Source: Candidatus Nomurabacteria bacterium RIFCSPLOWO2_01_FULL_39_18 (GTDB lineage: Bacteria; Patescibacteriota; Minisyncoccia; Phycocordibacterales; UBA9973). Taken from it: a stretch of 64,000 nt of DNA. The notes under the pieces were generated by a model that did no database searches, was not told where the DNA came from, and saw only the letters and a program-made list of their open reading frames with translations. The position numbers and the translations under genes were made by a program. Shown piece after piece: positions 2,013 through 58,303 of this stretch (positions are counted from its first letter, which is position 1; each line of letters starts with the position of its first letter). The stretch covers positions 73,955 to 137,954 of the forward strand of contig MFUV01000010.1 in NCBI GenBank assembly GCA_001787005.1, in the 5' to 3' direction.

Positions 2013-2056
2013 AATTTTAACATTCTCACATTCTTAAGAATGTCGGAATGTTATCT

Positions 2057-3751: not shown

Positions 3752-3797
3752 TTATATTATCACTAATCAGAGCGGAGTCCAGCACCAAGCTCCGGCT

Positions 3798-5221: not shown

Positions 5222-5974
5222 TTACTGTTTTGTTATGACAATATCTTCGAAGTGATTATTTTGCACCGCGTCCAGAATTCCATTTCTTACTAATTCCAGC
5301 ATTGCTAAAAATCCCACTATCACCGTCACCTTCTCTTCCCGCGTAGATACCTTGCCCGCAAATTCGGAAAAGTTCATCTTGAGAGCAGTTTGTATCCTTT
5401 GCGAAAGTCTATTAATCATTTCTTCTATGCTTATAACCTTTCTCACTTCCGCTTCCGGCAAAATTATTTTTTGGGGCATTCCTCCCAGAACCTCGCGCGC
5501 GAAAGTCATCATTGATTCTCTGGTAATCTGATTATCCGGCAAAAATACAAGAACTTGATTTTTCTGTTCCTGTGGCGCAAAAATTATTTTTTTTCCAAAA
5601 TTACTTTTTATATGTAGAGAAAGTTTCGTAAAAAGTTCATATAAACGCAATTGTTCCTCTAGGCTACGTATATCGCCTTCTTCTTCCGAAGTAAGATTTA
5701 AATTAGGAAGCAATGATTTTGATTTGATCAGAATAAGAGTTGATGCAACCAAAATAAAATTTGAAATTTCCTGTGGGGACAAACCTGCCTGCGCCCCGCC
5801 TGCGCGGGCAGGAGACAGGCCACCTAGTTTGTTCATGTACTCTAGGTAATCTTCCGTTACGGTAGCTAATGAAACATCATTAATAAAAAGTTTCCTTTTT
5901 TCTATGAGATCCAAAAGTAGCCCAAAGGGGCCCTCAAAGCCTGCAGTCTTTATTGTATAGGTATCTCTTTCCAC
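5222..5974 (-). CDS. scpA: Segregation and condensation protein A (kleisin) carrying a 12-aa GC-rich insertion
   Basis: FEGPFGLLLDLIEKRKLFINDVSLATVTEDYL is the canonical ScpA N-terminus. An insertion, LSPARAGGAQAG, is encoded by the 36-nt element at 5784..5819. Confidence 0.8.
   Translation of the reverse strand: MERDTYTIKTAGFEGPFGLLLDLIEKRKLFINDVSLATVTEDYLEYMNKLGGLSPARAGGAQAGLSPQEISNFILVASTLILIKSKSLLPNLNLTSEEEGDIRSLEEQLRLYELFTKLSLHIKSNFGKKIIFAPQEQKNQVLVFLPDNQITRESMMTFAREVLGGMPQKIILPEAEVRKVISIEEMINRLSQRIQTALKMNFSEFAGKVSTREEKVTVIVGFLAMLELVRNGILDAVQNNHFEDIVITKQ
5784..5819. repeat. 36-nt GC-rich palindromic element (cctgcctgcgccccgcctgcgcgggcaggagacagg), copy 1, in-frame in scpA
   Basis: Identical 36-mer also at 21456..21491 inside lepA. 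Both encode LSPARAGGAQAG in the host-gene frame. Contains the hairpin cctgc-gcgg-gcagg. Confidence 0.85.
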
Positions 5975-11269: not shown

Positions 11270-11331
11270 CTCAGTGGTAGAGCGACCCCTTGACGTGGGG
11301 TAGGCCGGGGGTTCAATCCCCTCACCGCGCA
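11260..11331 (+). tRNA. tRNA-Val (anticodon GAC)
   Basis: Cloverleaf: acceptor gcgcggt/accgcgc; D-arm gctc-agtggta-gagc; anticodon stem acccc/ggggt with loop ttGACgt; T-arm ggggg-ttcaatc-ccctc. Its first 10 nt overlap the gdhA stop region. Confidence 0.85.
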
Positions 11332-11332
11332 C

Positions 11333-12631: not shown

Positions 12632-12642
12632 TATGATATTAT

Positions 12643-14829
12643 TTGTCTATGGATAGTAGATTACTCAAACCCTATAACCCGAAAGAAACAGAAGAAAGAA
12701 TCTACAAGCTATGGGAAGATAGCGGTTTTTTTAACCCAGACAAGAATACTAATCCAGACGCCGAGCCTTTCACCCTAATAATGCCTCCCGTCAATGCAAA
12801 TGGTTCTCTACACGCGGGACATGGCCTGATACTGACCATCGAAGATGTAATGGTGCGCTACAAAAGGATGCGCGGATTCAAAACGCTCTGGCTTCCAGGA
12901 CTAGACCATGCCGGCTTTGAAACACAAGTCGTTTATGAAAAGAAGTTAGAAAAAGAAGGACGAAGCAGATTCGAGATAGAACCAAAACAACTTTATAAGG
13001 AAATTCTGGACTTTACTCTAGCCAACTCGACTAATATAAAATCTCAGATAAGAAAAATGGGAGCTTCGTGCGATTGGGGACGAGAAAAATTTACACTAGA
13101 CCCAGATGTGGTGAAAACTGTCCATCAAACATTCGAGAGAATGTATGACGATGATTTGATTTATCGAGGAAAACGAATCATCAGCTGGTGTTCCAAGCAT
13201 CAAACATCATTTTCCGATTTAGAAATAAAAGACGAAGAACGCACAGACGATTTTTATTATCTCAAATATGGACCTTTCACTATCGGCACAGCTAGGCCAG
13301 AAACTAAATTTGGTGATAAATATGTAGTTATGCACCCGGATGACGAACGTTATAAAGAATACAAAGAAGGCCAAAAAATAAATTTAGAATGGATAAATGG
13401 TCCCATAGAAGCCACTGTTGTAAAAGATGACTCCATAGATAAGGAATTCGGAACCGGAGTCATGACGATAACTCCCTGGCACGACACTCTAGACTTTGAG
13501 ATCGCAGAGCGACACAAGCTAGACAAAGAACAAGTCATCGACGAAAACGGAAAATTGCTACCCATCGCGGGAGAATTTGCCGGACAACATATCAAAAAAG
13601 CACGACCACTCATAATCGAAAAATTGCAAAAGAAGGGTTTGGTGGAAAAAATAGATACAAGCTACAAGCATGTCGTTCGTACTTGCTATAAATGCGGGAC
13701 AATTATTGAACCTCAAATCAAAAGTCAGTGGTTTGTGAAAATGAAACCTTTGGCCGAGAAAGCCTTGGAGAAAATTGAGAATGGAGAAATAGTTTATATT
13801 CCCGAACATTATAAAAAAATTACGGTTCATTGGTTAGGGAACATAATGGACTGGAATATCTCCCGGCAGATAGTCTGGGGGATCCCCATTCCCGCAAAGA
13901 TATGTAAAGAATGCAGTCACGGAATGGTAGATATAGGGGAGAAAATTACAAAGTGTAAAAAGTGTGATGGCGAAGTTGAAAAAGACAATGACACCTTTGA
14001 TACTTGGTTCTCGTCTGGACAGTGGCCGTTTGTAACACTTGGTTATCCAGATTCTCCTGATTTTAAAAAATTTTATCCCACGGACGTTATGGAAACTGGG
14101 GGCGACATTATATTCTTTTGGATTTCTCGTATGATTATGCTGGGCCTCTATGTGACCGGAAAAATTCCCTTCAAGACGGTATATTTAAATGGCATGGTTC
14201 TCGACGCTAAAAGCCAAAAAATGAGTAAAAGTAAAGGAAATGTTATCGATCCGCTTGTCCTGACAGAAAAATACGGCACCGATGCCTTCAGAATGGGAAT
14301 GGTTGTGGGCAACACGCCAGGGACCTCGCTCGCACTTGCCGAGGAGCGGATTAGAGGATATAAAAATTTCGCAAATAAAATCTGGAATGCTGCACGCTTC
14401 GTGCTCGACAATACGAAAGATTTTAAAATACCGACAACGCCGCCCTATGACGAAGAAGATAAGAAATCAGACGAAGAACTGAAAAATTTAATAACCGAAA
14501 TCACGACAGAAATAGATGAATACAAGTTCTACATTGTCGCAGAAAAACTTTACCACTACTTTTGGCACACTTTTGCTGATATTATTATTGAGAGGTCAAA
14601 AAAGAAAATTGCCGAGAACAAAAATGCAGATGGAGCAAAGGCGCTTTTGTATACACACCTCGAAACATTGCTTGGGGCTTTGCACCCCTTCATGCCATTT
14701 ATTACTGAAGAAATTTGGCAAATTATAAAATCCCGACGCAAGGTCGGGACCCCGACTGAAACGTCGGGGTTACTTATGGTAGAACAATGGCCCTTTGACT
14801 CTGCTCAGGGCAAGCCAAAATCGATATGA
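12643..14829 (+). CDS. valS: Valyl-tRNA synthetase (short form, lacks C-terminal coiled-coil)
   Basis: HIGH region PPVNANGSLHAGHGL. KMSKS motif KMSKSKGN. Anticodon-binding region LHPFMPFITEEIWQ. Size is 728 aa. The last 25 aa are encoded by tandem GC hairpins. Confidence 0.9.
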   Translation: MSMDSRLLKPYNPKETEERIYKLWEDSGFFNPDKNTNPDAEPFTLIMPPVNANGSLHAGHGLILTIEDVMVRYKRMRGFKTLWLPGLDHAGFETQVVYEKKLEKEGRSRFEIEPKQLYKEILDFTLANSTNIKSQIRKMGASCDWGREKFTLDPDVVKTVHQTFERMYDDDLIYRGKRIISWCSKHQTSFSDLEIKDEERTDDFYYLKYGPFTIGTARPETKFGDKYVVMHPDDERYKEYKEGQKINLEWINGPIEATVVKDDSIDKEFGTGVMTITPWHDTLDFEIAERHKLDKEQVIDENGKLLPIAGEFAGQHIKKARPLIIEKLQKKGLVEKIDTSYKHVVRTCYKCGTIIEPQIKSQWFVKMKPLAEKALEKIENGEIVYIPEHYKKITVHWLGNIMDWNISRQIVWGIPIPAKICKECSHGMVDIGEKITKCKKCDGEVEKDNDTFDTWFSSGQWPFVTLGYPDSPDFKKFYPTDVMETGGDIIFFWISRMIMLGLYVTGKIPFKTVYLNGMVLDAKSQKMSKSKGNVIDPLVLTEKYGTDAFRMGMVVGNTPGTSLALAEERIRGYKNFANKIWNAARFVLDNTKDFKIPTTPPYDEEDKKSDEELKNLITEITTEIDEYKFYIVAEKLYHYFWHTFADIIIERSKKKIAENKNADGAKALLYTHLETLLGALHPFMPFITEEIWQIIKSRRKVGTPTETSGLLMVEQWPFDSAQGKPKSI
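14735..14790. repeat. Tandem GC-rich hairpins (cccgac-gcaag-gtcggg; accccgac-tgaaac-gtcggggt) forming the valS 3' coding end
   Basis: Perfect short inverted repeats. They encode the SRRKVGTPTETSGLL tail in place of the usual ValS coiled-coil. Confidence 0.6.
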
Positions 14830-15515
14830 TGACCAGTGATCCAAAAATTTTGTTTCTAGCATTTGTTGGCGGAATCATCCCTGCCCTATTGTGGCTGTGG
14901 TTTTGGCTGAAAGAAGACAAGCAGAAGCCCGAACCGAAGGGGCTACTTTCTGTGATTTTCATAATGGGCGTGATAGCTGTTATTTTCGTTCTGCCAATTC
15001 AAAAGTTTATCCAGGCTCATGTGGTCTCGCATGGATGGGAGCTAGTTTTATGGGCGACAGCAGAAGAAATAATGAAATATCTGGCTGTGATGATTGTACT
15101 TTATAAAACAAATTTTGCTGATGAGCCCGTAGACTGGCCAATATATATGATTACGGGGGCTTTGGGTTTCGCGGCGCTCGAGAATGCTCTATTTTTGATT
15201 AAACCGCTCTCTTTAGGCGCAACTGCGGTGGGTCTCTTAACGGGTCAATTAAGATTCCTCGGATCGACTCTTCTTCATACAGTTTCAAGCGCCATAGTGG
15301 GTATTGCGGTGGGAATCTCGCTCCACATGGGTGGATTTGCTAGAAAATGGCACTTTTTGGTAGGGCTTTTTCTGGCCAGCGCCTTGCATAGTATCTTTAA
15401 TTTCTTTATAATAAAGAACAATGGCAGTGACTTTCTAAAAGTGTTTGCTTTCTTGTGGGTCGTCACCATTATTGTCATGTTACTTTTCGAAAAAATAAGA
15501 AGAATGAATTACTAG
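14826..15515 (+). CDS. PrsW-like intramembrane protease family membrane protein
   Basis: Multi-TM 229-aa protein with EExxK (ATAEEIMKYLAV) and conserved His segments, as in PrsW (PF13367). Tentative. Confidence 0.45.
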   Translation: MMTSDPKILFLAFVGGIIPALLWLWFWLKEDKQKPEPKGLLSVIFIMGVIAVIFVLPIQKFIQAHVVSHGWELVLWATAEEIMKYLAVMIVLYKTNFADEPVDWPIYMITGALGFAALENALFLIKPLSLGATAVGLLTGQLRFLGSTLLHTVSSAIVGIAVGISLHMGGFARKWHFLVGLFLASALHSIFNFFIIKNNGSDFLKVFAFLWVVTIIVMLLFEKIRRMNY

Positions 15516-15532
15516 ATTAATTAACAAAAAAT

Positions 15533-16012
15533 ATGGAACCAAAAAAGAGGGGTTTTTTTGAAAGATTGGCTGGAAGCGTTAGAATGGAAGAAGAACCGGA
15601 AGAGGGAAAGAAAAAATTTACGGGAATGGGTAATGGAGAAAAAGGCAGTAGAAAAAATAATTGGATTGAGGAAGAAAGCGAAGATGCAGAACTGGCCGTC
15701 GATGTTTACCAGACCGAAGGAGACATCATTATACAAACAATGGTTGCTGGGGTGAAGCCGGAAGATTTAGAGCTATCGATTGCCAGAGACATCGTAACTA
15801 TTTCGGGCAAGCGCGAAGAATCTAGAAACGTAGATGAAGAAAATTATTTTGTCAAAGAGCTTTATTGGGGCAAATTTTCTCGCACCATCTCGCTTCCCCA
15901 AGAAATTGAACCGGAAGAAGTTGACGCAACAGAGCGCCACGGACTTGTTACCATCAAACTTCAGAAAGTGGATAAAGAAAAGAAAAACACCATAAAAGTC
16001 AGATCAATCTAG
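15533..16012 (+). CDS. Small heat-shock protein (Hsp20/alpha-crystallin)
   Basis: Alpha-crystallin domain LAVDVYQTEGDIIIQTMVAGVKPEDLELSI...GKFSRTISLP...VDATERHGLVTIKL. Confidence 0.8.
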   Translation: MEPKKRGFFERLAGSVRMEEEPEEGKKKFTGMGNGEKGSRKNNWIEEESEDAELAVDVYQTEGDIIIQTMVAGVKPEDLELSIARDIVTISGKREESRNVDEENYFVKELYWGKFSRTISLPQEIEPEEVDATERHGLVTIKLQKVDKEKKNTIKVRSI

Positions 16013-17259
16013 GAGATCAAATCTGCTTTTTCTTTTATTTCAACTTTTCTCACAAAATAAAAGCCGATGGCCACAAATACTGCCATGGTTATCATGGCAA
16101 TACGGTATCGTACTACTCCAAAATTAATAAAAATATAAGTTATCATCCCCCAAAATAGTGGTCCTATCAGAGTTGATGTTCGCTCTGCTAATGTGTAAAA
16201 ACTAAAACCGAAATTTAGCTTCTCTTTCGGAGTAAGCGCTGTCATAGCAGTTCGACTCACAGTCCATATAGCTCCAAAAAGAAAACCGACCAAAATACAC
16301 AAAACAGTGAATAACTTGAAGTTTGTGTTTAAACCAAGTACGGGTATGAATACGACCCAAACACCAATCACAATCAAGAGAGATTTCTTGAGCCCAATTT
16401 TATCTATAATAAAACCGGAAGAAACAGCTCCGATGATGGAAGTAAGCAAAGCTCCGCCCAGAAGAATTGTTTTTAATTTGTCAGAGACGCCAAAGACATT
16501 CTGGAGGTAAATGGGAAAATTATTAGAAACGGTAAGAATAGCGTCATTGAAAAAGAAATAGGCTAAAAGAAACATTTTCATGTTTCTATCAGAAACTAGG
16601 CTTTTGAATTGCTGCCATAGGCTTCTGTATTCTTCTTTAAAATTAATTTTGTAATCTGGATTTTGTTGCATTTGTAATTTGAAAAACAAAAGCATCGGCA
16701 ACGCAAGAATAAAAAATAAAATAGTTGCGGGCAAGAAAGTCTGTGCGCGACCAGTTTCGCCTATGAGATAAATAGCCCCGCCAGCAAGGGGTAAGGTAAT
16801 TAATAGCCCAGCGATTTGCCCCAGGTAGTTGGCTCCGATACCGATACCGGACACTCTCCCCCATTTTTCTCTAGGGGCAATATGATGCAAGAATGCATTA
16901 TAAAAAACAAAGGAAAATTGGTAAAAATAATTCGCAAGAAGAAAGAATAATGCCGCTAAAAATATTTGATGAGAAAAAAACAAGGCTACCAGAGAAACAC
17001 CAAGAAAGAAGAGGAGTGAAAGCATAGTGATCTTATTGAAATAACTTTGTTGTCTTCCTGTCTTGTCGGCAATGCTTCCTAAAATAGGAGCTGTAAAAAG
17101 AAGCATGGCTGATCCAATTGTAAAAATCATGTTAAACCAAAAATCTGCTATCCCCTTGTCAATTACCAGCCATTGAGAAAAATATAAAAAGAAAACAATG
17201 AAGACCATCGAGTTCGCAAAATCATAGAGAGTCCAGAAAAAAATATTTTTCTTGTTCAT
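16009..17259 (-). CDS. MFS transporter
   Basis: About 12 predicted TM helices and a GxLaDrxGrkx-like loop (GSIADKTGRQQ). The ORF-track start at 17283 overlaps tRNA-Phe, so the start was moved to the Met at 17259 (MNKKNIFF). Confidence 0.7.
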   Translation of the reverse strand: MNKKNIFFWTLYDFANSMVFIVFFLYFSQWLVIDKGIADFWFNMIFTIGSAMLLFTAPILGSIADKTGRQQSYFNKITMLSLLFFLGVSLVALFFSHQIFLAALFFLLANYFYQFSFVFYNAFLHHIAPREKWGRVSGIGIGANYLGQIAGLLITLPLAGGAIYLIGETGRAQTFLPATILFFILALPMLLFFKLQMQQNPDYKINFKEEYRSLWQQFKSLVSDRNMKMFLLAYFFFNDAILTVSNNFPIYLQNVFGVSDKLKTILLGGALLTSIIGAVSSGFIIDKIGLKKSLLIVIGVWVVFIPVLGLNTNFKLFTVLCILVGFLFGAIWTVSRTAMTALTPKEKLNFGFSFYTLAERTSTLIGPLFWGMITYIFINFGVVRYRIAMITMAVFVAIGFYFVRKVEIKEKADLIS

Positions 17260-17262
17260 TTG

Positions 17263-17334
17263 TGCCTGGGGGGTGAATCGCACACCCGGCCACTTCCTCT
17301 TCAGGGAAATGCTCTACTACTGAGCTACCCAGGC
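17263..17334 (-). tRNA. tRNA-Phe (anticodon GAA)
   Basis: Minus-strand cloverleaf: gcctggg-ta-gctc-agtagta-gagc-a-tttcc-ctGAAga-ggaag-tggcc-gggtg-tgcgatt-caccc-cccaggc-a. Confidence 0.85.
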
Positions 17335-17354
17335 ATAATTGTTTTCAATAAAAA

Positions 17355-17600
17355 TTACTGACCGAACTGTTTTATATTATTTAACACATCACCTGCTCCG
17401 CTATATACGCCTATTAATTGCTCTATATACGGCTGGATAAAATAATAAGCGCCAAGAGCAGAGCCTATAATAAGGACCCAATACAATATGGTCATCATCC
17501 TCTGAAAGCGCATTGAGCGCCTCATGGAGTGCAGTATACTATTATTCTCCTTTGCCAGCGCTAGAGTCTCCTCTAAAAGCTTTTTGGATTCGGGATCCAT
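17355..17600 (-). CDS. Small membrane protein, unknown
   Basis: 81-aa ORF with one hydrophobic helix. No recognisable motif. Confidence 0.35.
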   Translation of the reverse strand: MDPESKKLLEETLALAKENNSILHSMRRSMRFQRMMTILYWVLIIGSALGAYYFIQPYIEQLIGVYSGAGDVLNNIKQFGQ

Positions 17601-17730
17601 CCCGTACGAAATTTCATTAAATTAATAAAATGACCAATCCCATATACGAAACTTTATTAGCAAGATTTCGTACGGGATCCATAGCTACAATTTAGCATAA
17701 TAATTAAAGAAATAAAAGGTTACAGGAAAC

Positions 17731-18567
17731 TTATTGAGTAAGAATTGAAGGATTGTTATATCTTGATATTCTGGCTCGTTTTACTTCTTCTTTTTTGTCT
17801 TTTAATTGATTCGTATCAGATGCCCTAACCAATTCACCCGCTAGCTGTTCTGCTTTAATTTTACTAGATTTATTTCTTCCTAGAATTGCGTAGCCCATAG
17901 CTATTGTAATTTTAAAAGAAAAAGGTTCGCCCGAAAAACTCTCGTCCTCATTTATCTTTACGCCTTTAACAATCAAATTGGTATTTACTTTATCTTGAAT
18001 TCTTGTAAAAATTTTTTTCAACTTTACATCATCTAAATTACCTCTAATCGACAATACCATCCGGAATTCATCGCCATGGGGATGAAATACTAGATCCCCT
18101 CCAAGTTCTTTTACTGCTTCCTGCAACCTTTGGGCGACAGCTTTGATTGCTTGATCGCCCACAGGATGACCATGCCTATCATTTATTACCTTAAAATCAT
18201 CTATGTCCGCAGCAATTGCCATGATGGAGTCTGGAGTAGACTCGCTCTTGGGATTCTGATTTAATTGCTTAATCAATGCAGGCAGTTTTCTTTCTAAACC
18301 AAGACGGTTGTAGCAACCAGTAAAGGTATCAATGCCTTGGTTCGTTTCTAGAGAAGAAATTATTCCTTCTTGCTTTCTCGCAAGCACAGTAATTAATTCA
18401 ATATATTGATCTTTTGTTATTGCTTCTCTCGCGAGAGCGCCACTTATCATATTCACCGTGCAAACACCTCTTGCCAACAAATCCTTTAAATCTTTAAGGG
18501 TCTTCGGGTTCTCCATTATTGCTGTTTTTTCTGGAGTATATGGTGGCTTTCTTGGTATCCATTCCAT
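17731..18567 (-). CDS. GGDEF-domain protein (signature reads HGDEF)
   Basis: GCYNRLGLERKL, IAADIDDFKVINDRHGHPVGDQAI and HPHGDEFRMVL are GGDEF-domain landmarks. The first Gly of GG(D/E)EF is replaced by His. Confidence 0.7.
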   Translation of the reverse strand: MEWIPRKPPYTPEKTAIMENPKTLKDLKDLLARGVCTVNMISGALAREAITKDQYIELITVLARKQEGIISSLETNQGIDTFTGCYNRLGLERKLPALIKQLNQNPKSESTPDSIMAIAADIDDFKVINDRHGHPVGDQAIKAVAQRLQEAVKELGGDLVFHPHGDEFRMVLSIRGNLDDVKLKKIFTRIQDKVNTNLIVKGVKINEDESFSGEPFSFKITIAMGYAILGRNKSSKIKAEQLAGELVRASDTNQLKDKKEEVKRARISRYNNPSILTQ

Positions 18568-18616
18568 CTAAAAATCATAACACAAGCCACCATGAAATCC
18601 AATTTTGTAAAATTTG

Positions 18617-18691
18617 TGGTGCCCCCGGCAGGAATTGAACCTACATCTATCCCTTAGGACGGGACTGTTCTATCCGTTGAACTACGAGGAC
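18617..18691 (-). tRNA. tRNA-Arg (anticodon CCT) with encoded CCA
   Basis: Minus strand: gtcctcg-ta-gttc-aacggata-gaac-a-gtccc-gtCCTaa-gggat-agat-gtagg-ttcaatt-cctgc-cgggggc-a-cca. The acceptor stem has two G-U pairs. The anticodon assignment is moderately confident. Confidence 0.65.
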
Positions 18692-18817
18692 ATATATATT
18701 GTTTGTTCCAATCAAATTTAGCATATTTATAATAAACTTGAAATGCTATGTTGATTTTCTTTTTCAAATTTATTAAAGTTTTTTGCGAAAGAGGTGCGCA
18801 ACGTTTCCCTTTTTTAT

Positions 18818-19063
18818 TTAAACTCCAAGCAGTTTAGAAATTAAAGGCTTGCTGAAGCCCACTACGAGATCATTCCCAATGATTATTACCGGCACGCCCA
18901 TTTGCTTGCTTTTTTCTATCATTTCCTTTCTTTTTTCGGCATCGCTCGCTACATCATATTCCGTATAAGGTACGTTTTTTTCCTTGAAAAACTCTTTAGC
19001 CATATGGCAGAAATGGCAGGACGGGGTAGTATAAATTGTTACCTCTGGTGTTATATTTGGCAT
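18818..19063 (-). CDS. Glutaredoxin-like protein (CxxC = CHFC)
   Basis: 81 aa. TIYTTPSCHFCHMAKEFF followed by GVPVIIIGNDLVVGF is a thioredoxin-fold glutaredoxin/NrdH pattern. Confidence 0.7.
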   Translation of the reverse strand: MPNITPEVTIYTTPSCHFCHMAKEFFKEKNVPYTEYDVASDAEKRKEMIEKSKQMGVPVIIIGNDLVVGFSKPLISKLLGV

Positions 19064-19126
19064 TTGATTTTCTGAAATTATCTTCTAATCCTTCTATTGT
19101 ATCATACTTGTCAAGTAAATAAAAAA

Positions 19127-19182
19127 TGTTCAGTGTTAAACACTGTTAAACACTCAGTGTTGAACATTTCGATGTTGAACAT
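19127..19182. repeat. REP-like hairpin repeats, family A (units gtgttgaacac / tgttgaacatttcg), 5' flank of RAYT-1
   Basis: Tandem imperfect palindromes: cagtgttaaacactgttaaacactcagtgttgaacatttcgatgttgaacat. Confidence 0.7.
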
Positions 19183-19573
19183 TTTTATGGCAGTTTTTCA
19201 ATCATTTGTTGGATCGAACATTCACCAGGAAAATCAAAGTTAGGGACATCCCCATACCCAGTAGTGCCACCAATAAGAGCATGCCATAATCGATACTTTT
19301 GTCTTTCTAGGGGGTTGGGATAAGATTGATTGATAATATCTAGGCACCGCTCTTTCCATTTTTGAAACTCGGTAACTCCTATTTTTTCTTGAAAAACAAG
19401 CATCTTTTGCTTAAGTCTAATAATTAACTCTCTCTCTCTGCCGAAGTCTGTAATAATTTTGTACTTTTTTCATCCCTGGATTGTACACCCTCAGCTCCTT
19501 GGGAAAATTTATCTGGTTTTGACATAATATTTGATTTTATCACACCAACAACCCTTTTCCCAATACCCACACT

Positions 19574-19612
19574 AATGTTGAACAATGTTAAACACCGAGT
19601 GTTGAACATTTT
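19574..19612. repeat. REP-like family A copy immediately upstream of RAYT-1 start
   Basis: atgttgaacaatgttaaacaccgagtgttgaacattttt. Confidence 0.7.
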
Positions 19613-19635
19613 TCATAAAGGTATATAATACGGTT

Positions 19636-20301
19636 ATGAGAAATATAAAAATAGCACCCGGAGAATATTATCATATTCTTAATCGTGGAATGAGTAAGCA
19701 ACTAATTTTTCATGACAATAGAGATAGAACAAGATTCCTCTTTCTAATTTTATACTTTCAATCCCCTGTTACAATTCAAAATATACATCGTCCAGTAAAG
19801 TCATTTGTTGAACACTCGGTGTTTAACATTGATAAAGAGATTGAGCAAGAAATTGTTACAAGGAAGTTCGTAGAACTCGTCTCCTTTTGCTTAATGCCAA
19901 ATCATTTTCACTTAATCGTCAAAGAAATCGAGGAAAATGGTATGGCTAGATACATGCAAAGAGTCTTGAATGGTTATACCAAATACTGTAATACAAAATA
20001 CAATAAATCGGGACATCTTTTTCAGGGACCATATAAAGCAGTACATATAAGGAGTAACGAGCAACTTTTATATTTATCTTCATATGTCCACAGGAATCCG
20101 AGAGAACTGAAAGAGTGGTTAAATAAAGAAAGTAGTTATCCATGGTCAAGTTACCAAGATTTTATAAAGAAGAATAGGTTTAAAGAATTACTTGTTCTTG
20201 ATATAATCAGTGGACAATTCAAAAATAAAGACAAGTATAATAAATTTATAAAGGAGAGTACGGCAAAATTATTAAAGGAAGAACTGGATTGGATAGACTA
20301 G
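19636..20301 (+). CDS. REP-associated tyrosine transposase-like (IS200/IS605 Y1 HuH transposase family), RAYT-1
   Basis: GEYYHILNRG near the N-terminus, the HuH motif CLMPNHFHLIV, and the downstream QGPYK with Tyr. Size is 221 aa. A REP-A copy (tgttgaacactcggtgtttaacat, 19806..19829) lies inside the ORF, in-frame. Confidence 0.75.
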   Translation: MRNIKIAPGEYYHILNRGMSKQLIFHDNRDRTRFLFLILYFQSPVTIQNIHRPVKSFVEHSVFNIDKEIEQEIVTRKFVELVSFCLMPNHFHLIVKEIEENGMARYMQRVLNGYTKYCNTKYNKSGHLFQGPYKAVHIRSNEQLLYLSSYVHRNPRELKEWLNKESSYPWSSYQDFIKKNRFKELLVLDIISGQFKNKDKYNKFIKESTAKLLKEELDWID

Positions 20302-20304
20302 TAA

Positions 20305-20351
20305 GTGTTCAGTGTTCAACACCGAGTGTTGAACACTCGGTGTTGAACAAT
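20305..20351. repeat. REP-like family A, 3' flank of RAYT-1 (perfect hairpin gtgttcaacac-cga-gtgttgaacac, then a second overlapping hairpin)
   Basis: The 11-bp stems are exact reverse complements. It sits in inverted orientation relative to the upstream copies, a REPIN-like arrangement. Confidence 0.8.
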
Positions 20352-20428
20352 ATGCGGGATTAGTTTAGTGGCAGAATGAGTCCTTCCCAAGGATTAGACG
20401 GGGTTTCGATTACCCCATCCCGCACCAG

Positions 20429-20803
20429 CTACTTAAATAAATTCCTAAAAAAATTAAAGAACCCACCAGAAGATTCATCCTCTACTTCCACCTTCTCTTT
20501 ATCTTCCACCACTACGATCAGACCCTCTCCTTCCTTCGCCAAACCAAATTTATCCCGAATATTCTCCTCAATCCCGCTCTCTGTCTCTAGTCTGGCTATA
20601 TCGGATGAGAGTTTTGCTTTTTCCCCCTCTAGCTCTGCCACTTTATTCCCTATTATTTTTCTATTTTCCCTTGTTGTTCTCATCTTAACCGTCAGGTCAA
20701 TGACCCCCCAGGCAAAAATCAATACCAAAATCCCCAGAAATAACAAAACTGGCCACGATTCCATGATATTTCTCCATCCTCTCTTTTGTTGAAAACTTCT
20801 CAT
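20429..20803 (-). CDS. FtsB/DivIC-like septum formation initiator
   Basis: N-terminal TM, then a coiled coil (KVAELEGEKAKLSSDIARLE), then IRDKFGLAKEGEGLIVV. This matches the FtsB ARE.LG...GE.V motif. The overlapping plus-strand ORF 20376..20792 is low-complexity. Confidence 0.6.
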   Translation of the reverse strand: MRSFQQKRGWRNIMESWPVLLFLGILVLIFAWGVIDLTVKMRTTRENRKIIGNKVAELEGEKAKLSSDIARLETESGIEENIRDKFGLAKEGEGLIVVVEDKEKVEVEDESSGGFFNFFRNLFK

Positions 20804-20971
20804 GATATGTTATATTACCATATATGCTTTTCAATAAAAAACATCAAAAAAAGATACAGGTGATTTGGGCGGTCGTGAGTATTCTGATTATCGTTAGCAT
20901 GATTTTGCTGTATTCGCCGATTTTTAGACTGGGATAAAACTCGTCGCAGGCGTACTTCCAAGAAAGAGTTT

Positions 20972-22858
20972 TTATTCCACGCTTTTCATCATTTTCAAAA
21001 ATACATCTTGGGGGATGTTCACTCGCCCCCTTTCCTTCATTTTCTTTTTGCCCTTCTTTTGCTTCTCACGAAGTTTCATTTTGCGAGTGATGTCTCCGCC
21101 ATACATGTGCTGAGTAACATCCTTCTTCATGCCAGAGAGAGTGCGTGATGAGATGATGCGCCCTAGCGCACGACCTTGAATTTTCAAAGTGAACATTTGC
21201 CGTGGAAGCAGGCTCTCTAATTTAAGAACAGTTTTTTCAGCTTCAATTTCCACTCTTTTCCTGGAAACCACCTTAGAAAAAGCAGGAACTACTTCATCGG
21301 CAACCAGCACATCAAGTCTAGTAACATTCGCCATCCTCATATCATCTATCTGGTAAGAGATGGAACCATAGCCAGATGATGCGCTTTTCAATTCATCGAA
21401 AAAGTTGCGCATCAGCTCGCGAAGCGGCATTTTCACGGACAAAATAAAACGATTGCCTGCCTGCGCCCCGCCTGCGCGGGCAGGAGACAGGTCGCCGAAG
21501 TTTTCTGTCTCTCCAATCTCGGCTTCGTGGTCAAATAAAATTTGCATAATAGAACCCAGATATTTTGCAGGAGTTATGATCTTAGCTACCACCCACGGTT
21601 CAAAAACAGTTTCAATATTACTATCGTCTGGGAAAAAATATGGAGAATACACTTTTTCCTTTTTACTATTCTTCATTAACACTTCATAGGTGATAGACGG
21701 AGTGGTAATGATTAATTCTAAATTAAATTCCCGCCTTAACCTCTCGGTAATAATCTCCAAATGTAACATTCCCAAAAATCCGCACCGGAAACCGCGACCA
21801 AGAGAGCCGGAAGACTCTTCTTCATAAGAAAAAGCCGAATCTGAGAGTTTAAGCTTTCCAAGGGCTAATTTAAGTTCGGCAAAATCGTCTGCGTCTTCGG
21901 GAAAAACTGAAGCCCAGACCACGGGCATCGGCTGCATATAGCCAGGCAGAGCCGGCAAGGGATTTCTAAGCATCGTAATGGTATCTCCGACAGATGCAAT
22001 TCCGGGTTTCTTAATACCGGTAACAATGTATCCTGTATCACCGGCAGAAAGATGCTCCCGCGGAGTTTCTTCGGGCGAGAAAGTGCCCACCTCGAGAGAG
22101 TTGAATTTCTCGCCCGATATTGCAAAAACTAAATTTTCGCCTTTCTTGATTTTGCCGTCAAGCACTCGTATAAAAACAATTACCCCCCTATGATTGGAAT
22201 ATTTGAAATCAAAGACAAGAGCGCGCAAGCTGTCATCCCCTTTATACGTTTCTTTGGGCTCTGGAACGCGTTTGATTATCTCCTGTAAGAGATTCTCCAC
22301 TCCCTCGCCCGTACGGCCAGAAACCAATAGTATTTCTTCGGGATCACAATTTAAAAGCTTTATAACTTCTTCTCTAACTTCGGATACCCTAGCAAGTGGT
22401 GAATCAATCTTCGAAAGCACAGGAATGATTTGCCTGCCTCCTTCTTTGCCCCCCTCGCGCGCCATATTGAGCGTAGTCAGCGTTTGAGCCTGCACACCCT
22501 GAGTGGAGTCGACTAGTAAAATAGAGCCTTCTACGGCCTTTAGAGCGCGAGAAACTTCATAAGAAAAATCTATGTGCCCAGGGGTATCAATCAGGTTCAG
22601 TACATACTTAGTGGTCGAAGCACCACTTGGTGCTTCGACCACTAAGTCATATTCCATCCTGACTGGCTGCATTTTGATGGTGATCCCCCGCTCGCGCTCA
22701 AGCTCCATGACGTCGAGCACTTGCTCTCTCATTTTGCGAGTCTCGATGGTATGAGTAATCTCGAGCATTCTGTCCGCCAAGGTGCTCTTGCCATGATCAA
22801 TGTGCGCGATGATTGAAAAGTTTCGTATGTGTTTTAAATCCATTTTTTTGTGTGTCAA
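20972..22858 (-). CDS. lepA: Elongation factor 4 (LepA) carrying the 36-nt element insertion
   Basis: G1 motif NFSIIAHIDHGKSTLADR. DTPGHIDF. The LepA-specific C-terminal domain is present. It carries the LSPARAGGAQAG insertion encoded by 21456..21491. Confidence 0.9.
   Translation of the reverse strand: MTHKKMDLKHIRNFSIIAHIDHGKSTLADRMLEITHTIETRKMREQVLDVMELERERGITIKMQPVRMEYDLVVEAPSGASTTKYVLNLIDTPGHIDFSYEVSRALKAVEGSILLVDSTQGVQAQTLTTLNMAREGGKEGGRQIIPVLSKIDSPLARVSEVREEVIKLLNCDPEEILLVSGRTGEGVENLLQEIIKRVPEPKETYKGDDSLRALVFDFKYSNHRGVIVFIRVLDGKIKKGENLVFAISGEKFNSLEVGTFSPEETPREHLSAGDTGYIVTGIKKPGIASVGDTITMLRNPLPALPGYMQPMPVVWASVFPEDADDFAELKLALGKLKLSDSAFSYEEESSGSLGRGFRCGFLGMLHLEIITERLRREFNLELIITTPSITYEVLMKNSKKEKVYSPYFFPDDSNIETVFEPWVVAKIITPAKYLGSIMQILFDHEAEIGETENFGDLSPARAGGAQAGNRFILSVKMPLRELMRNFFDELKSASSGYGSISYQIDDMRMANVTRLDVLVADEVVPAFSKVVSRKRVEIEAEKTVLKLESLLPRQMFTLKIQGRALGRIISSRTLSGMKKDVTQHMYGGDITRKMKLREKQKKGKKKMKERGRVNIPQDVFLKMMKSVE
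21456..21491. repeat. 36-nt GC-rich palindromic element, copy 2, in-frame in lepA
   Basis: Identical to 5784..5819. Same orientation relative to its minus-strand host gene. Confidence 0.85.
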
Positions 22859-22873
22859 AGAGACACTTTGACA

Positions 22874-24637
22874 TTATTCCAAAAATCCTCCAGTTTGGTG
22901 GCTCCAAAGTTCCGCATACACACCATTTTTCCCCAATAATTCTTTATGTGTTCCCCCCTCCACAATTTTCCCCTTGTCTAATACAATAATTCTATCCATT
23001 TTTTGAATAGTGGAAAGTCGGTGAGCAATGACTATCGTGGTTTTCCCTTTCATTAATTCACCGAAGGCTTCTTGAATAAAAGATTCGCTGACGCTATCAA
23101 GTGAACTTGTGGCTTCATCAAGCATCAGTATTGGAGAGTTTTTCAGCATCGCCCGAGCTATCGCCACCCTTTGTCGTTCCCCACCTGAGAGCTTAACTCC
23201 CCGTTCACCAACAAGCGTATCATAACCATGGGGCAGTTTAGAAACGAAGTCATTAGCATGAGCCTTTTTTGCAACGACGATAATTTCTTCATCGCTTGCA
23301 TTCGGCTTGCCGTATGAAATATTCTCTCTAATTGGTCGATGAAAAAGTATCGGCTCCTGCGGAACATACGATATGACACTGCGCAAGTCATCTTGAGTAA
23401 TGTTCCTAATGTCTTGACCATCGATGGTAATCTGTCCAGAAGTCACGTCGTTAAACCGTAAAAGAAGTTTGGTGATAGTAGATTTGCCTGCGCCCGAATG
23501 CCCGACAATACCCACTCGCTCTCCGGATCTAATGTCGAGATTAAAATCTGATAAAACTTCTTGACTCATGTCGTACTTGAAAGAAACATTTTGAAAAACA
23601 ATATTACCTTCTTTTATTTTGAGAATTTCAGGATTTTTGGGATCCAATATATCCGGTGTTATCTCGAAGATATCAACCATTTCTTTCATATCAGAAGCCG
23701 ATTTCATAAATCTAGTCAAAGAATTGCCAAATTCCCATAAATCATTAGAAACCATCACCATGTATGTTTCAATAAGCACGATTGTTCCAGTAGAAATCTT
23801 ACCCTGGAGCCATAGCATTATCATAAGATAAAGGGTGACGCTTTGAACGATTATGATCAGAATGTGCTGGATGAGATCTATTTTGCCTCCCATAAACCAA
23901 GCCTTTTTACTCCTCTTCGCTCCCTCATCAGCATATTTACCAAAAGAAACTATTTCCTGGTTGCGAGCAGAGAAAAATTTTACCGCTAGGATATTAGAAA
24001 AAACATCCGCCAGCCGCCCGCTTATCCTTGAATCTTGCTCGGCTTCAGAGAGATCATAGGCGACTTTTCTTTTGACAAAAAATGATACTATCGTAACATG
24101 TACGACTATCCAGATGCCAAAAACTAAGCTGATGACGGGAGACTGGTAAATAAGCACCGCGAATACGCCTGCCAGAATTACAAAAAATTTTAAAAAGCTG
24201 TAGAGAAATATGTCGAATGTAATTTCGAAGCCTCCAATAAAACGCCTAGCTTTTGTCACTAAGCTTCCGGCAAAAGTATTAGCGAAAAAAGTTTGCGAAT
24301 TCTGCTCAATTTTCTGAAAAGTGTAATTACGAAGGTCACGGATAACATTAACACTAAATTGCAATATGGTAAATTTTACAGTTCTGGCTACAAATAAAAC
24401 AAAAATATGTATTCCAATAATAATAAAAAATAATTGAAAAATGTCTTGCGTTGTCGTCGCCAGATCTCCAATTCCCGTCGTAAAAATATCGATAATTTTC
24501 TTAAAATAGAGTGGAACTACGATTCTGTCTAGAAATGTCCTCAAGCTGAAGCCTACCAGAATAAAGAAAAAAACCCACTTCCGTTTGCGCATTTGGGGCC
24601 ACACATATTTCAATATTCTGGAAAAAAACGAAAACAT
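22874..24637 (-). CDS. ABC transporter, fused permease/ATPase (exporter type)
   Basis: N-terminal 6-TM domain. Walker A GHSGAGKST. ABC signature LSGGERQRVAIARAML. Walker B ILMLDEATS. Confidence 0.85.
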   Translation of the reverse strand: MFSFFSRILKYVWPQMRKRKWVFFFILVGFSLRTFLDRIVVPLYFKKIIDIFTTGIGDLATTTQDIFQLFFIIIGIHIFVLFVARTVKFTILQFSVNVIRDLRNYTFQKIEQNSQTFFANTFAGSLVTKARRFIGGFEITFDIFLYSFLKFFVILAGVFAVLIYQSPVISLVFGIWIVVHVTIVSFFVKRKVAYDLSEAEQDSRISGRLADVFSNILAVKFFSARNQEIVSFGKYADEGAKRSKKAWFMGGKIDLIQHILIIIVQSVTLYLMIMLWLQGKISTGTIVLIETYMVMVSNDLWEFGNSLTRFMKSASDMKEMVDIFEITPDILDPKNPEILKIKEGNIVFQNVSFKYDMSQEVLSDFNLDIRSGERVGIVGHSGAGKSTITKLLLRFNDVTSGQITIDGQDIRNITQDDLRSVISYVPQEPILFHRPIRENISYGKPNASDEEIIVVAKKAHANDFVSKLPHGYDTLVGERGVKLSGGERQRVAIARAMLKNSPILMLDEATSSLDSVSESFIQEAFGELMKGKTTIVIAHRLSTIQKMDRIIVLDKGKIVEGGTHKELLGKNGVYAELWSHQTGGFLE

Positions 24638-24787
24638 CTCGCCATTTTACCAGAAAAAACCTATATTTCAAAGTCTTTTGGGATTTTTGATTTTGGCACA
24701 AAAAAATTGTACTAAACCACGCTATAGCGTATTTTTGTACAATAACCTAAATAACCCATTGATTTGATAGCTGATAAATTAATAAAA

Positions 24788-26467
24788 TCAAAGCCCTTCT
24801 TGAGGAGGTGCGACGACTTTTGCCCTCCAGAATTTGGTTTTGAAAGTTTTTATTATTTCTTTCAATTCTTCATTTCCCAGAAGATGCAAGACCAAAATTG
24901 CCGCCCAAATACCCAGGATGCCAGAGATAAAGCCCTGCAGAAAAACTCCCCAGAATGTGGTGGTGCCAAAAATTGGTGAAAATATATTCAAAGATAGATA
25001 CGCCACAAGTCCCAGAAAAAATGCGGCGCCCAAACTTTGGAAAAAAGTCTTGGTAATGAAGGAATCCCCTTTCATAAAGTCACGCCTCACGAAAAACCAA
25101 AGAATAATTGAATTCAAAATGGTGCCGGAAGAATACGCAAGCGGAAGCATTAATACTTCTGTGCCGGGAATATCCGTGACCTTCAGCATCGACTCAATAA
25201 AATAATGAAAGATTGGAATATTTTTAAATATATATATAAATAAATAAGATAAAATTATAATAAAAATGGAACAGAAGAAATTAGTCGAAAGCGGCCTTCT
25301 GGTATTGCCCTTGGCATAGTAAGCTCGAGACAAAAGAGCAATCATTCCTTGAGCAACAACTGAAATAGAAAAGATGGCGAGCGATGCTGCTACTAGACGG
25401 GTATTTTCCCAAGAAAAAGATCCAGAACCAAGGATTACTCGAACGATCTGCGCTCGAACCACAATAAACAGAAATACTACGGGGAGCGACCAAAACACGA
25501 TGGCACGCGCGGCTTCTTTAAGATGACTTTTAAATTCATCCATTTTTCCAAGAGAGATAGACTTCGCCAGGGTGGGAAAGGCAGCCACTGCATAGGATAT
25601 ACCGATGATGTTAAGAGGCACCGATTGAAGATTGAAGGAAAGGTTGAATATTGAAATGGAACCACTCTCTAGATATGAAGCAAGGGCGATGATAGAAATC
25701 AAAGCCACGTTGTTAAAAGCCAGGCCTAGGGTACGAGGTAGTGAAGTCATCGCTACTTGTTTGACATCTTTAAAATTAATAGGAAAAGAAAATTTAAACG
25801 TAAACCCGAGAGTTTTGGATGCGAATGTTTGAACCAAAAAATGCATCAAGGCACCCAGGACTACCCCCATGGCCAACCCATAAATACCAAAGCGGGGATA
25901 GAAAAATATAACACCAGAAATAATCCCCAAATTATAAAAAACCGGACTTAAGGAATAAATAAAAAACTTCCGAAAAAGCTGGGTAAGGCTCCCAAAAAGA
26001 TTCGAAAGTCCCATTAAAATAGGTGAGAGCAACATTATGCGCGAAAGCATAACTACTTTTGTTTGCATTATCGCAGTAAAACCCGGCGCAATGAAAGACA
26101 CTAAATATGGCATTAGTAAATAGGCTATTAGGGAAACGAGTATCATTACAAGAAAAAAAACAGTAAAAACATTACTTAAGAATTTGCGCGCTTCTTCGCT
26201 TATTTTTTCGCCTGGTATTTTTGACGCTATAAATGGTATTAGCACTGTGACAGAAACCAGAGAAGCAATAGATATGAAGATGAGATCAGGAATTCTAAAC
26301 GCCGCATAATAGGCATCTAGCGTCGCCCCCGGCCCGATGAAGTGCGCAAAAGCGCGGTCACGAAATAACGCCAAAATTTGCGAAAGAAAAGCAAAAGACC
26401 CCAGAAGAAGCGCCGCTTGATTTATGTTCACATATTCCTTGCTGAAAATTTTAAAAATCCTATCCAT
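24788..26467 (-). CDS. murJ: Lipid II flippase MurJ (MviN) family
   Basis: FRDRAFAHFIGPGATLDAYYAAFRIPDLIF matches the MurJ N-terminal signature. About 14 TM helices. Size is 559 aa. Confidence 0.8.
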   Translation of the reverse strand: MDRIFKIFSKEYVNINQAALLLGSFAFLSQILALFRDRAFAHFIGPGATLDAYYAAFRIPDLIFISIASLVSVTVLIPFIASKIPGEKISEEARKFLSNVFTVFFLVMILVSLIAYLLMPYLVSFIAPGFTAIMQTKVVMLSRIMLLSPILMGLSNLFGSLTQLFRKFFIYSLSPVFYNLGIISGVIFFYPRFGIYGLAMGVVLGALMHFLVQTFASKTLGFTFKFSFPINFKDVKQVAMTSLPRTLGLAFNNVALISIIALASYLESGSISIFNLSFNLQSVPLNIIGISYAVAAFPTLAKSISLGKMDEFKSHLKEAARAIVFWSLPVVFLFIVVRAQIVRVILGSGSFSWENTRLVAASLAIFSISVVAQGMIALLSRAYYAKGNTRRPLSTNFFCSIFIIILSYLFIYIFKNIPIFHYFIESMLKVTDIPGTEVLMLPLAYSSGTILNSIILWFFVRRDFMKGDSFITKTFFQSLGAAFFLGLVAYLSLNIFSPIFGTTTFWGVFLQGFISGILGIWAAILVLHLLGNEELKEIIKTFKTKFWRAKVVAPPQEGL

Positions 26468-30629: not shown

Positions 30630-31520
30630 TTATATACCCCACACAGCAGTATTGGCAAGTGAAACAAGGCGATTATTCGACTTTTCCAAGACACAGAGCT
30701 CCCCGGCTTCTGTTTGACCCTTAAAATCTTTCATTATTTCAGCAAGCGCATAACTAAGTGAAAGCGCAGAAGAATCGGTAGCATAAGAAGTCAAAATCAC
30801 AAAAAGGGGCTTGTCGGTTAGAACCCTCCCGACCAAAGAAAGCAGTTTCGGCAACATTTCTTCTATCTTCCATACTTCCCCCCTGGGACCACGGCCGTAC
30901 TTGGGCGGATCCATAATCACAGCGTCATACTTATTGCCTCGTTTTATTTCTCGCTCTAGAAATTTTGTGGCGTCATCTTCTATCACCCGCATTGGCATTT
31001 TATCAAGGCTAGATAATTTTTGATTTTCTTTCGTCCAATTTAATACTTGCTTCGAGGCATCCACATGCGTCACATCTCCACCAGCCCTGAGAGCAAATAG
31101 GCTCGCCACACCGGTGTAGCCGAATAAATTAAGAAATTTTATTTTCTTGCCGGAGTTTTTTATTTTATTCTCTATGTAATCCCAGTGATTTGCCTGCTCC
31201 GGGAAAAATCCCAAATGTCTAAATGGTGTGGGAGAAACAAAAAATTTAATTCCCCTGTATTCCATCTCCCACTTCGTGTCAAGGTTCAACCTTGACATTT
31301 GCCACCCGGCTTTGGCACCAACTTTCGAGCTCCAGAATTTTCCATCAACATTTGTCCACTGTTGTTGAACACTCGGTGTTGAACATTTCGGCCAGACAGC
31401 ATCTTCATAAGGACGAATAAAAGTGTATTTCCCGAATCGCTCCAGCTTCTCTCCACCACCCGTATCTAGAAGCTCGTAGTCCACCCAATCCTTTGAACAA
31501 AAAATTTTTATCTGGTTCAT
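30630..31520 (-). CDS. Class I SAM-dependent RNA methyltransferase, RlmI/RlmK-like
   Basis: LNLFGYTGVASLFALRAGGDVTHVDASKQVLNW is SAM-binding motif I with a post-I acidic residue. Motif IV is VIMDPPKYGRG. It parallels E. coli RlmI (VLNVFSYTGGF...VIVMDPPKF). It hosts a REP-A insertion. Confidence 0.65.
   Translation of the reverse strand: MNQIKIFCSKDWVDYELLDTGGGEKLERFGKYTFIRPYEDAVWPKCSTPSVQQQWTNVDGKFWSSKVGAKAGWQMSRLNLDTKWEMEYRGIKFFVSPTPFRHLGFFPEQANHWDYIENKIKNSGKKIKFLNLFGYTGVASLFALRAGGDVTHVDASKQVLNWTKENQKLSSLDKMPMRVIEDDATKFLEREIKRGNKYDAVIMDPPKYGRGPRGEVWKIEEMLPKLLSLVGRVLTDKPLFVILTSYATDSSALSLSYALAEIMKDFKGQTEAGELCVLEKSNNRLVSLANTAVWGI
31361..31392. repeat. REP-like family A copy inserted in-frame within the methyltransferase gene
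   Basis: tgttgttgaacactcggtgttgaacatttcgg encodes ...PKCSTPSVQQQW... on the minus strand. It is identical in core to the RAYT-1 flanking repeats. Confidence 0.75.
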
Positions 31521-31523: not shown

Positions 31524-32351
31524 TTATATCAAAAATTCTATCACATCTCCGTCTTTTACAATGTATTCTTTGCCTTCGGTGCGAACCAAGCCTTTCGAGC
31601 GAGCAGCAACATGTGAACCACAATCTAATAAATCTTTCCAATTTACTACTTCCGCGCGGATAAATTTTTCTTTGAAATCATTGTGTATCGCTTTACCCGC
31701 TTCCGGCGTCGTAGAACCTCTGCGAGTTGTCCAGGCGCGAGTTTCATCTTCGCCAGTGGTTAAAAAGGTAATTAGGTTGAGCAAATCATAGCTTGCCTTG
31801 ATGAGACTATCGAGTCCAGTGCCAAAAACTGGATCAACTTCTATGTACGGACCAGGAATTTTATCTGCCACTTCCCGCATATTTTTCTCGCTAGCTTCCG
31901 ACATATTAAGAACATAAAGAATCGGTTTTCTAATTCCTGCTTGTTCTAGCTCAAAATTTATTACTTCAATATCAAAAAGCGGGTCAATTTTATTATGCAC
32001 ATGGATTGTATTTGCATCCTCGAAAATCCGCACCATTTCGATAATCGCATCCACTTCACGAATGTGGGAAAGGAATTTATTACCGAGCCCGGCGCCCTCG
32101 CTTGCCCCCTTGACCAATCCTGCAATGTCCACAAACTCAACTACCGCCGGAATAACTTTTTTAGATTTGCTCATCGCCGCAAGCTTCTCTAATCTCTCGT
32201 CTGGCACCGGAACAATACCCACCGACGGGTCAATGGTACAAAAAGGATAATTCTCCGCAGGTACGCCTTTCTTCGTCAGCGCATTAAAAAGCGTGGACTT
32301 ACCCACGTTCGGTAAACCGACAATCCCTATTTTCAGAGAAGAACTTGACAT
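31524..32351 (-). CDS. ychF: Ribosome-binding ATPase YchF (Obg-family), compact form
   Basis: IGIVGLPNVGKSTLFNALTK and NYPFCTIDPSVGIVPVPDERL match the YchF N-terminus. The TGS-like C-terminus is EYIVKDGDVIEFLI. At 275 aa it lacks the usual helical insert. Confidence 0.85.
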   Translation of the reverse strand: MSSSSLKIGIVGLPNVGKSTLFNALTKKGVPAENYPFCTIDPSVGIVPVPDERLEKLAAMSKSKKVIPAVVEFVDIAGLVKGASEGAGLGNKFLSHIREVDAIIEMVRIFEDANTIHVHNKIDPLFDIEVINFELEQAGIRKPILYVLNMSEASEKNMREVADKIPGPYIEVDPVFGTGLDSLIKASYDLLNLITFLTTGEDETRAWTTRRGSTTPEAGKAIHNDFKEKFIRAEVVNWKDLLDCGSHVAARSKGLVRTEGKEYIVKDGDVIEFLI

Positions 32352-42931: not shown

Positions 42932-43056
42932 ACATTCATTATACCTTAATAAGTTCTAAAAAGCCGCTATTTGAGAACGCAGAAAAGCACCAATTCTCAA
43001 TCGCGGCTTATTTTAAGCGGCAATTTTGGAAAAAGTTTTCCACAGCTATTGCTTAT

Positions 43057-58292: not shown

Positions 58293-58303
58293 ATGATGAC
58301 TAG

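Follow-up and report, generated by a model that had tools for sequence, protein, structure and literature searches.

A 36-nt GC-rich palindromic repeat inserted in lepA of a Nomurabacteria genome and its relatives in other Paceibacteria genes

The lepA gene (EF4) of Candidatus Nomurabacteria bacterium RIFCSPLOWO2_01_FULL_39_18 carries a GC-rich sequence of 36 nt at 21456..21491, which a first-pass annotation of this DNA had recorded as the second copy of a repeat. This raises the question whether the gene has been invaded by a mobile element or has a loop of variable length, and by which route such a sequence could have arrived. A stretch of 64,000 nucleotides (contig MFUV01000010.1, positions 73,955 to 137,954; hereafter the window, to which all coordinates refer unless another locus is named) was analysed, in which lepA occupies 20972..22858 on the minus strand and has its best hits among Patescibacteria/Nomurabacteria-type sequences. 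The 36-mer is a true insertion. It is best described as a member of a new, very small family similar to the Rickettsia palindromic elements (RPEs) and the repetitive extragenic palindromes (REPs), present here in a new phylum and unusual in its strict codon phase and its recombination-linked hot spot in lepA.

Insertion of a 36-nt palindrome into lepA

The plus strand at 21456..21491 reads CCTGCCTGCGCCCCGCCTGCGCGGGCAGGAGACAGG, corresponding to CCTGTCTCCTGCCCGCGCAGGCGGGGCGCAGGCAGG in mRNA sense (minus strand). All 36 nucleotides are identical to 5784..5819 on the same strand, in agreement with the earlier record of a second copy. With up to three mismatches allowed, the window contains two matches, both perfect, compared to an expectation of 0.00 from 100 shuffles; this corresponds to a density of two copies per 64 kb. 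The GC content of the 36-mer is 81%, while the window ranges from 36 to 49% and the genome is at about 40%. A GC content of 77% or more is reached by just three 30-nt stretches of the 64 kb, two of which are the copies of the 36-mer. The third GC island (32083-32112) was rejected as an element, as it encodes a conserved motif (KGASEGAGLGN) which is also present in the related locus L004. No Rfam family was matched by the 36-mer.

The sister copy is located in scpA (5222..5974, minus strand, PF02616 match), where it interrupts a Gly codon (GG|T); the lepA copy interrupts an Asp codon (GA|C). Both are inserted in the same frame and translate as LSPARAGGAQAG (12 residues). By direct reading, all six frames of the 36-mer are free of stop codons, and the frames other than the one used give Cys- and Arg-rich peptides. 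The sequence can form a hairpin with an 11-bp stem, with a folding energy of −12.9 kcal/mol as DNA and −22.8 kcal/mol as RNA.

As read from the minus-strand open reading frame, the LepA protein runs ...ETENFGD-LSPARAGGAQAG-NRFILSVKMP..., which places the insert exactly where it had been described before. At this site 106 of 120 LepA relatives carry no insert and read GD|NRSS without interruption. The nearest insert-free relative, L001 (P0002), shares about 95% protein identity and 87% nucleotide identity with lepA of the window. Its empty site is clean, with GGCGA|TAATCGC compared to GGCGA[36 nt]CAATCGT in the window. No target duplication is visible in this comparison, nor in that of a second filled and empty pair (L048 and L049, see below). 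The 12-residue insert of ScpA was found in none of 150 representative relatives, the nearest of which read KLG-GLTP and KLGGLSPA.

LepA loops, including the one concerned here, vary in length among bacteria. The insert could therefore be seen as ordinary loop variation, or as an artefact of sequencing or assembly, with the match in scpA being a coincidence. This is contradicted by the 36/36 identity with zero chance expectation and by the preserved reading frames. Moreover, L002, a 14-kb contig of an independently made ENA assembly, is 99.986% identical to 11153-25308 of the window and bears the same lepA insert, which rules out assembly noise as its source. The sequence is also present in ENA, JGI and NCBI assemblies produced by different groups. 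The explanation is effectively refuted, and we assign it next to no probability.

Alignment to the solved structure of EF4 (5imq) puts the insert in the turn that joins two strands of domain V, a loop which is shorter in 5imq. In an AlphaFold model of LepA, used for secondary structure only given its mean pLDDT of 58, strands 442-449 and 465-473 surround a coil with pLDDT below 50. We assume that the insert is translated and forms a 12-residue loop rich in Gly and Ala.

Family members in other genes and their codon phase

Public genomes and metagenomes were scanned with the 3′ part of the 36-mer as query, and matches with 0-3 mismatches were taken as near-exact. Such copies are present in topA of Jorgensenbacteria (L006/L008/L014; the gene was called from reading the sequence), in a gene for a membrane protein of 906 amino acids (L009), in a DUF4015 glycosyl hydrolase gene (L010), in a nifS-like gene and in typA (both L013), and in ddl (L015). 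A single near-exact copy is non-coding and lies in the rpsT-ruvA spacer of L003. The GC content of the hosts ranges from 37% to 56%. L013 harbours three family members within 12 kb, one of them an 18-nt perfect palindrome (CCTGCCTGCGCAGGCAGG) in typA. Alignment to solved BipA places the typA inserts in gaps or loops, and two distinct TypA sites, each in another genome, contain the short peptide LPAQAG.

Shorter members share the termini of the 36-mer, CCTG(T/C)CT...GCAGGCAGG, and the family comprises sequences of 18, 21 and 36 nt. At the lepA site, L017 carries the 18-mer CCTGTCTGCGCAGGCAGG (peptide LSAQAG) and L016 the 21-mer CCTGTCTGGCCGGCAGGCAGG (peptide LSGRQAG), both with ends as in the 36-mer. 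The 36-mer itself can be written as CCTGTCT[CCTGCCCGCGCAGGCGGG]GCGCAGGCAGG, that is, as an 18-mer nested within the 18-mer of L017; its outer halves equal the lepA insert of that genome.

Some matches concern other hosts. On a contig of a Chloroflexota metagenome-assembled genome (L005, 60% GC), four relatives of 18, 18, 19 and 25 nt in both orientations lie at 4031-4458, within 430 bp around one intergenic spacer, an arrangement resembling a REP cluster. According to this, the core palindrome is not limited to bacteria of the candidate phyla radiation (CPR). The 36-mer had no match in viral contigs. The 18-mer matched 29 of them, most of which have 58-67% GC, a composition at which this kind of palindrome carries no information; the only AT-rich viral contigs with the 18-mer are L029 and L035/L038, in which it is in frame and reads LSAQAG/LPAQAG. 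A word-index search with a profile of the 12-residue peptide, padded with random flanks, yielded no protein match.

LepA and TypA of Paceibacteria contain other short palindromic inserts rich in GC, which appear repeatedly at several loops, as judged from the protein alignments of both families (P0001-P0120 and P0271-P0390). The peptides P(A/T)RNATHSVAGG and P(E/K)GK(R/Q)(E)AS(Y/D)GAG were found in both LepA and TypA, and PLLSEEGVGG and LPLNKGEVPKA are additional recurrent inserts. These short loop peptides probably represent further families of palindromic repeats inserted in frame.

All nine distinct coding sites of the 36-mer family are in phase 2, the element starting at codon position 3. 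At eight of them the insert reads L(S/P)PARA(G/D)GAQ(A/T)G or the 18-nt short form LPAQAG, while the ddl copy is inverted relative to them and gives LPAPRLRGQETG. The coding copies have lengths of 18, 21 or 36 nt, all multiples of three, and forms of 19 and 25 nt occur only in the L005 cluster. The expectation that copies elsewhere would be in frame and a multiple of three in length thus holds for every coding copy found. Nine of the sites are coding and one is intergenic.

The flanking nucleotides are biased as well. Of 12 instances, 10 have two purines in front of the insert and all 12 have a pyrimidine behind it; as a consequence, the interrupted codon is mostly GGY, GAY or AAY. In 42 genes of the window, 43% of RRY triplets and 49% of GGY triplets are in that phase. 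The chance of nine out of nine sites in phase 2 from target bias alone is about 0.45^9 = 8e-4, and the view that the codon phase is caused by a DNA target preference alone was rejected on these grounds. We infer that selection on the translated reading frame acts on the copies too.

Strict frame and phase, the stable hairpin and the near invariance of the 36-mer across distant lineages are also what would be expected of a selected module. Either the hairpin or the peptide could serve in translational pausing, as a site for a protein or nuclease, or as a signal for DNA uptake or recombination. Nevertheless, most orthologues work without the element, including those of relatives at about 95% protein identity, and the host genes are functionally unrelated. 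The density in the window is low, unlike that of uptake signals, and diverged or truncated copies persist in L004, L013 and L048. The missing Rfam match and the modest fold z-scores of the hairpin within its flanks (−2.3 and −0.8) speak against a selected structure, too. We consider such a function improbable.

The lepA hot spot and its adjoining patch

Short inserts at exactly the same lepA codon are present in 14 of 121 sequences, the window counted. Their peptides include LSGRQAG, LPGRQAG, LSAQAG, PSASLRAG and PEGKRASYGAG. In a rough neighbour-joining tree the filled alleles are split over about 12 positions, and each has empty relatives as neighbours. Nomurabacteria RIFCSPHIGHO2_01_FULL_36_23 (L004/L011) carries at this codon a 36-nt relative which is 83% identical and has the opposite orientation.

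The filled alleles also share a change next to the insert. All of them read NRx(I/V) behind it, whereas empty alleles read NRS(S/A/T), and in three close pairs of filled and empty alleles (95-96% protein identity) the insert and the NRx(I/V) change are the sole nearby differences. In the window, the 16-nt patch directly downstream of the insert (21440..21455, minus strand) reads CAATCGTTTTATTTTG and codes for NRFIL. Compared to L001, 8 of its 16 nucleotides differ, synonymous positions included. In the independent pair L048 and L049, 7 of 10 nucleotides differ at the patch, within more than 170 nt which are otherwise identical. With about 12 independent filled alleles and the same neighbouring Ser/Thr-to-Ile/Val change, the hot spot amounts to a natural replicate experiment.

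L048 and L049 stem from two close Paceibacteria, and their lepA genes (1450-3327 and 2814-4631 of the respective contigs) share 91.8% nucleotide identity. This identity is distributed as a mosaic, in which stretches free of mismatches (143, 104, 103 and 98 nt) are interspersed with patches that have up to 13 mismatches in 30 nt. L048 has a second, unrelated palindromic insert of 30 nt with a perfect stem (ATTTACCCGCACACTATTGGTAATAGTGTGCGGGTT; IYPHTIGNSVRV), and both palindromic inserts in this pair border diverged patches. The mosaic indicates that short-patch recombination may be frequent in these genes. From the mosaic together with the diverged patches adjacent to the inserts we infer that filled lepA alleles were imported by short-patch homologous recombination.

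A template switch, i.e. correction of a quasi-palindrome, was tried as another origin of the patch. The native patch neither extends nor stabilises the hairpin (−39.7 kcal/mol, compared to −43.9 kcal/mol for the ancestral sequence), and this origin was therefore rejected.

The same observations would fit a history without any active transposition, in which one rare illegitimate insertion per gene took place long ago and the alleles have since been moved by recombination or gene conversion only. The mosaic of L048 and L049, the palindromic inserts at the edges of diverged patches and the linkage of the NRxI patch to the insert in all filled lineages agree with it. It does not account for the fact that nine unrelated genes and a spacer, whose flanking sequences are not related either, contain identical 36-mers in genomes of 37-56% GC, nor for the two exact copies within 16 kb of the window and the three members within 12 kb of L013. 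Dispersed copies with 0-3 mismatches require repeated and fairly recent non-homologous insertion. We regard recombination alone as unlikely, though somewhat less so than a selected module.

A second segment of the window's LepA had been taken as a further GC-rich insertion, at about 22420..22475, and as a sign of repeated colonisation of the gene. The extra segment exists: at 22430..22456 (minus strand) a loop is expanded by 12 nt in frame and reads EGGKEGGRQ, so that the window protein (MAREGGKEGGRQ) is four residues longer than MAREGGLK of most relatives and MALEHGHV of Thermus EF4. It contains neither a palindrome nor a copy of the 36-mer and does not belong to the palindromic family. Its DNA, GAGGGGGGCAAA|GAAGGAGGCAGG (EGGK|EGGR), resembles a tandem repeat, and the expansion is probably a 12-nt tandem duplication. 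L001, without the 36-mer, has an expansion of the same length here, and the flanks reach about 63% GC also in those relatives which lack the four additional residues. In L016 the same loop holds a true palindromic insert. Repeated colonisation thus applies to lepA of the relatives, which has several hot spots, while lepA of the window was colonised once and not twice.

Proposed route of spread, known repeats and neighbouring sequences

Taken together, we consider it likely that the 36-mer belongs to an RPE/REP-like family of miniature palindromes, which are inserted and carried as translated passengers, moved by a putative enzyme, perhaps of the HUH type, and spread by recombination. The family would consist of GC-rich palindromes without coding capacity, dispersed in genomes of Paceibacteria (Patescibacteria/CPR). 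New, non-homologous sites would be reached by a DNA process acting in trans on the hairpin, for which a single-strand transposase of the HUH/Y1 type is the leading and most plausible candidate only. In lepA, the copy interrupts the Asp codon behind its second position, in the turn of a beta-hairpin of domain V. With a length that is a multiple of three and no stop codon, it could simply be transcribed and translated, and would be tolerated as RPEs are. Selection would retain only copies which lie in loops and use the mild reading frame. A filled allele could then pass between lineages by short-patch homologous recombination, which would account for the occupation of one lepA codon in about 12 scattered lineages, always with a small diverged patch beside the insert.

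Several points weigh against this proposal. No enzyme is tied to the element, and both transposase genes of the window carry other, AT-rich palindromes. There is no conserved target of 4-5 nt as in the IS200/IS605 type, only RR before and Y after the insert. The strict phase could stem from something besides selection on the peptide. Finally, passive passengers alone do not explain the near identity of the 36-mer across lineages with 37% to 56% GC.

A wider interpretation is possible but remains tentative, and we hold it to be doubtful in its full extent. It assumes that Paceibacteria (CPR) possess a system of ultra-short hairpins (18-36 nt) which are actively copied by a single-strand DNA enzyme, exchanged as recombination patches and continually remodel loops of essential proteins (LepA, TypA, TopA, ScpA, Ddl, NifS and others), with the codon phase and the obligatory co-change of two residues behind the lepA insert reflecting either a mechanism or an epistatic rule and not a selective sieve alone. 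If this were true, the smallest and most streamlined bacterial genomes would still host mobile DNA, as loops of 6-12 residues in essential genes. Alignment and annotation of CPR proteins would be affected, since many unexplained short inserts would be repeats, as would views on how recombination and DNA uptake shape CPR genomes. It would also bear on the minimum size of a mobile element.

Neither the 36-mer sequence, nor its peptide, nor such elements in Patescibacteria were found in a search of a literature library. According to PMC10969869, which summarises Ogata et al. 2000 (Science 290:347), RPEs of Rickettsia are dispersed palindromes lying in frame in unrelated housekeeping genes of a small genome, translated, at positions compatible with the protein fold, with several families per clade. 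Their length is about 100-150 bp, corresponding to a conserved peptide of some 30-50 residues, and their hosts are Alphaproteobacteria. They bear a CGTC tag at one end (PMC3733652). The behaviour suggested by the first-pass annotation, that of a discrete RPE-like repeat inserted in frame, is indeed observed here at the nine coding sites in unrelated genes. Unlike RPEs, the copies measure 18-36 nt (6-12 residues), reside in Patescibacteria and lack the tag, CGTC/GACG being absent from both strands of the 36-mer; the family is set apart from RPEs by this description. To our knowledge, neither a strict codon phase nor recurrence at the same codon in both orientations has been described for RPEs.

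REPs are imperfect GC-rich palindromes of 20-40 nt which cause no target duplication and occur in many copies, some within genes in loops or linkers; REPs have been found at about the same recB site in two Xanthomonas species (PMC3733652, PMC3116915). The 36-mer resembles them as an imperfect palindrome of that size with a stem-loop and no duplication, and the window has Y1 transposase genes. In contrast to the REP/REPIN-RAYT system, it is mostly intragenic, no cognate RAYT flanked by it was seen in the partial genomes compared, and at no site do the tetranucleotides GTAG/CGTC occur in the element or directly beside it. Inverted dimers (REPINs) were not seen in the CPR loci. Miniature inverted-repeat transposable elements (50-500 bp, with target-site duplication) also have terminal inverted repeats but differ in both size and duplication. 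Elements of the IS200/IS605 type (PATE-like) cause no target duplication and insert next to a fixed target of 4-5 nt. At the copies described here no duplication is seen, and the flanks show the RR and Y pattern in place of a fixed tetranucleotide.

Very small mobile hairpin repeats of about 21-27 nt, for which no transposase is known and which include nested elements, were reportedly described in cyanobacteria by Elhai et al. 2008 (Genome Res 18:1484) as small dispersed repeats (SDRs). The family is similar to them in size, hairpin and nested members but has another sequence and belongs to another phylum; SDRs are reported to be located chiefly outside coding sequences and within other repeats, not in frame in conserved genes. 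The GC clusters and 'byp' elements of yeast mitochondria (Weiller et al. 1989; Lang et al. 2014 PNAS) are said to be short GC-rich palindromes invading an AT-rich genome, coding sequences included. The length of the organellar byps is not divisible by three, and ribosomes skip them. The copies described here, in contrast, keep the reading frame in every case and contain no stop codon, so that no ribosomal bypass is needed.

The window contains two genes of the Y1_Tnp type (IS200-like, PF01797) at 19636-20301 and 58310-58861, paralogues with 37% identity. The first one is bracketed by inverted copies of the AT-rich palindrome TGTTGAACACTCGGTGTTGAACA, and gene and palindromes together look like a REPtron or an IS200-type unit. 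Additional copies of the palindrome lie at 19134-19169, 19805-19830 and 31353-31388, and a tRNA gene (20354-20424) adjoins the right arm of the unit (19134-20364 region). This first transposase gene is present at the same place, after divIC, in L016 and L018 and absent from L001. A role of the lepA-adjacent transposase as the cognate enzyme is not supported, since it has its own palindromes and its presence in relatives does not follow that of filled lepA sites. The second gene is flanked by a different palindrome (TACCAAGGGGAACCCTTGGTA) at 58230-58297 and 58939-58974. Among the compared loci, which are partial genomes, Y1_Tnp was found only in L002, L016 and L018.

Other features of the window are a match to LOOT RNA (RF03000) at 35908-36017, with 68 bits compared to a gathering score of 46, and diverged paralogous gene segments near the window ends (254-3740 and 43056-44757), whose repeats are 66-84% identical. 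Within the GC-richer region from 60 to 64 kb, 60935-62260 shows internal repeats spaced by about 1 kb and probably encodes a large repetitive surface protein.

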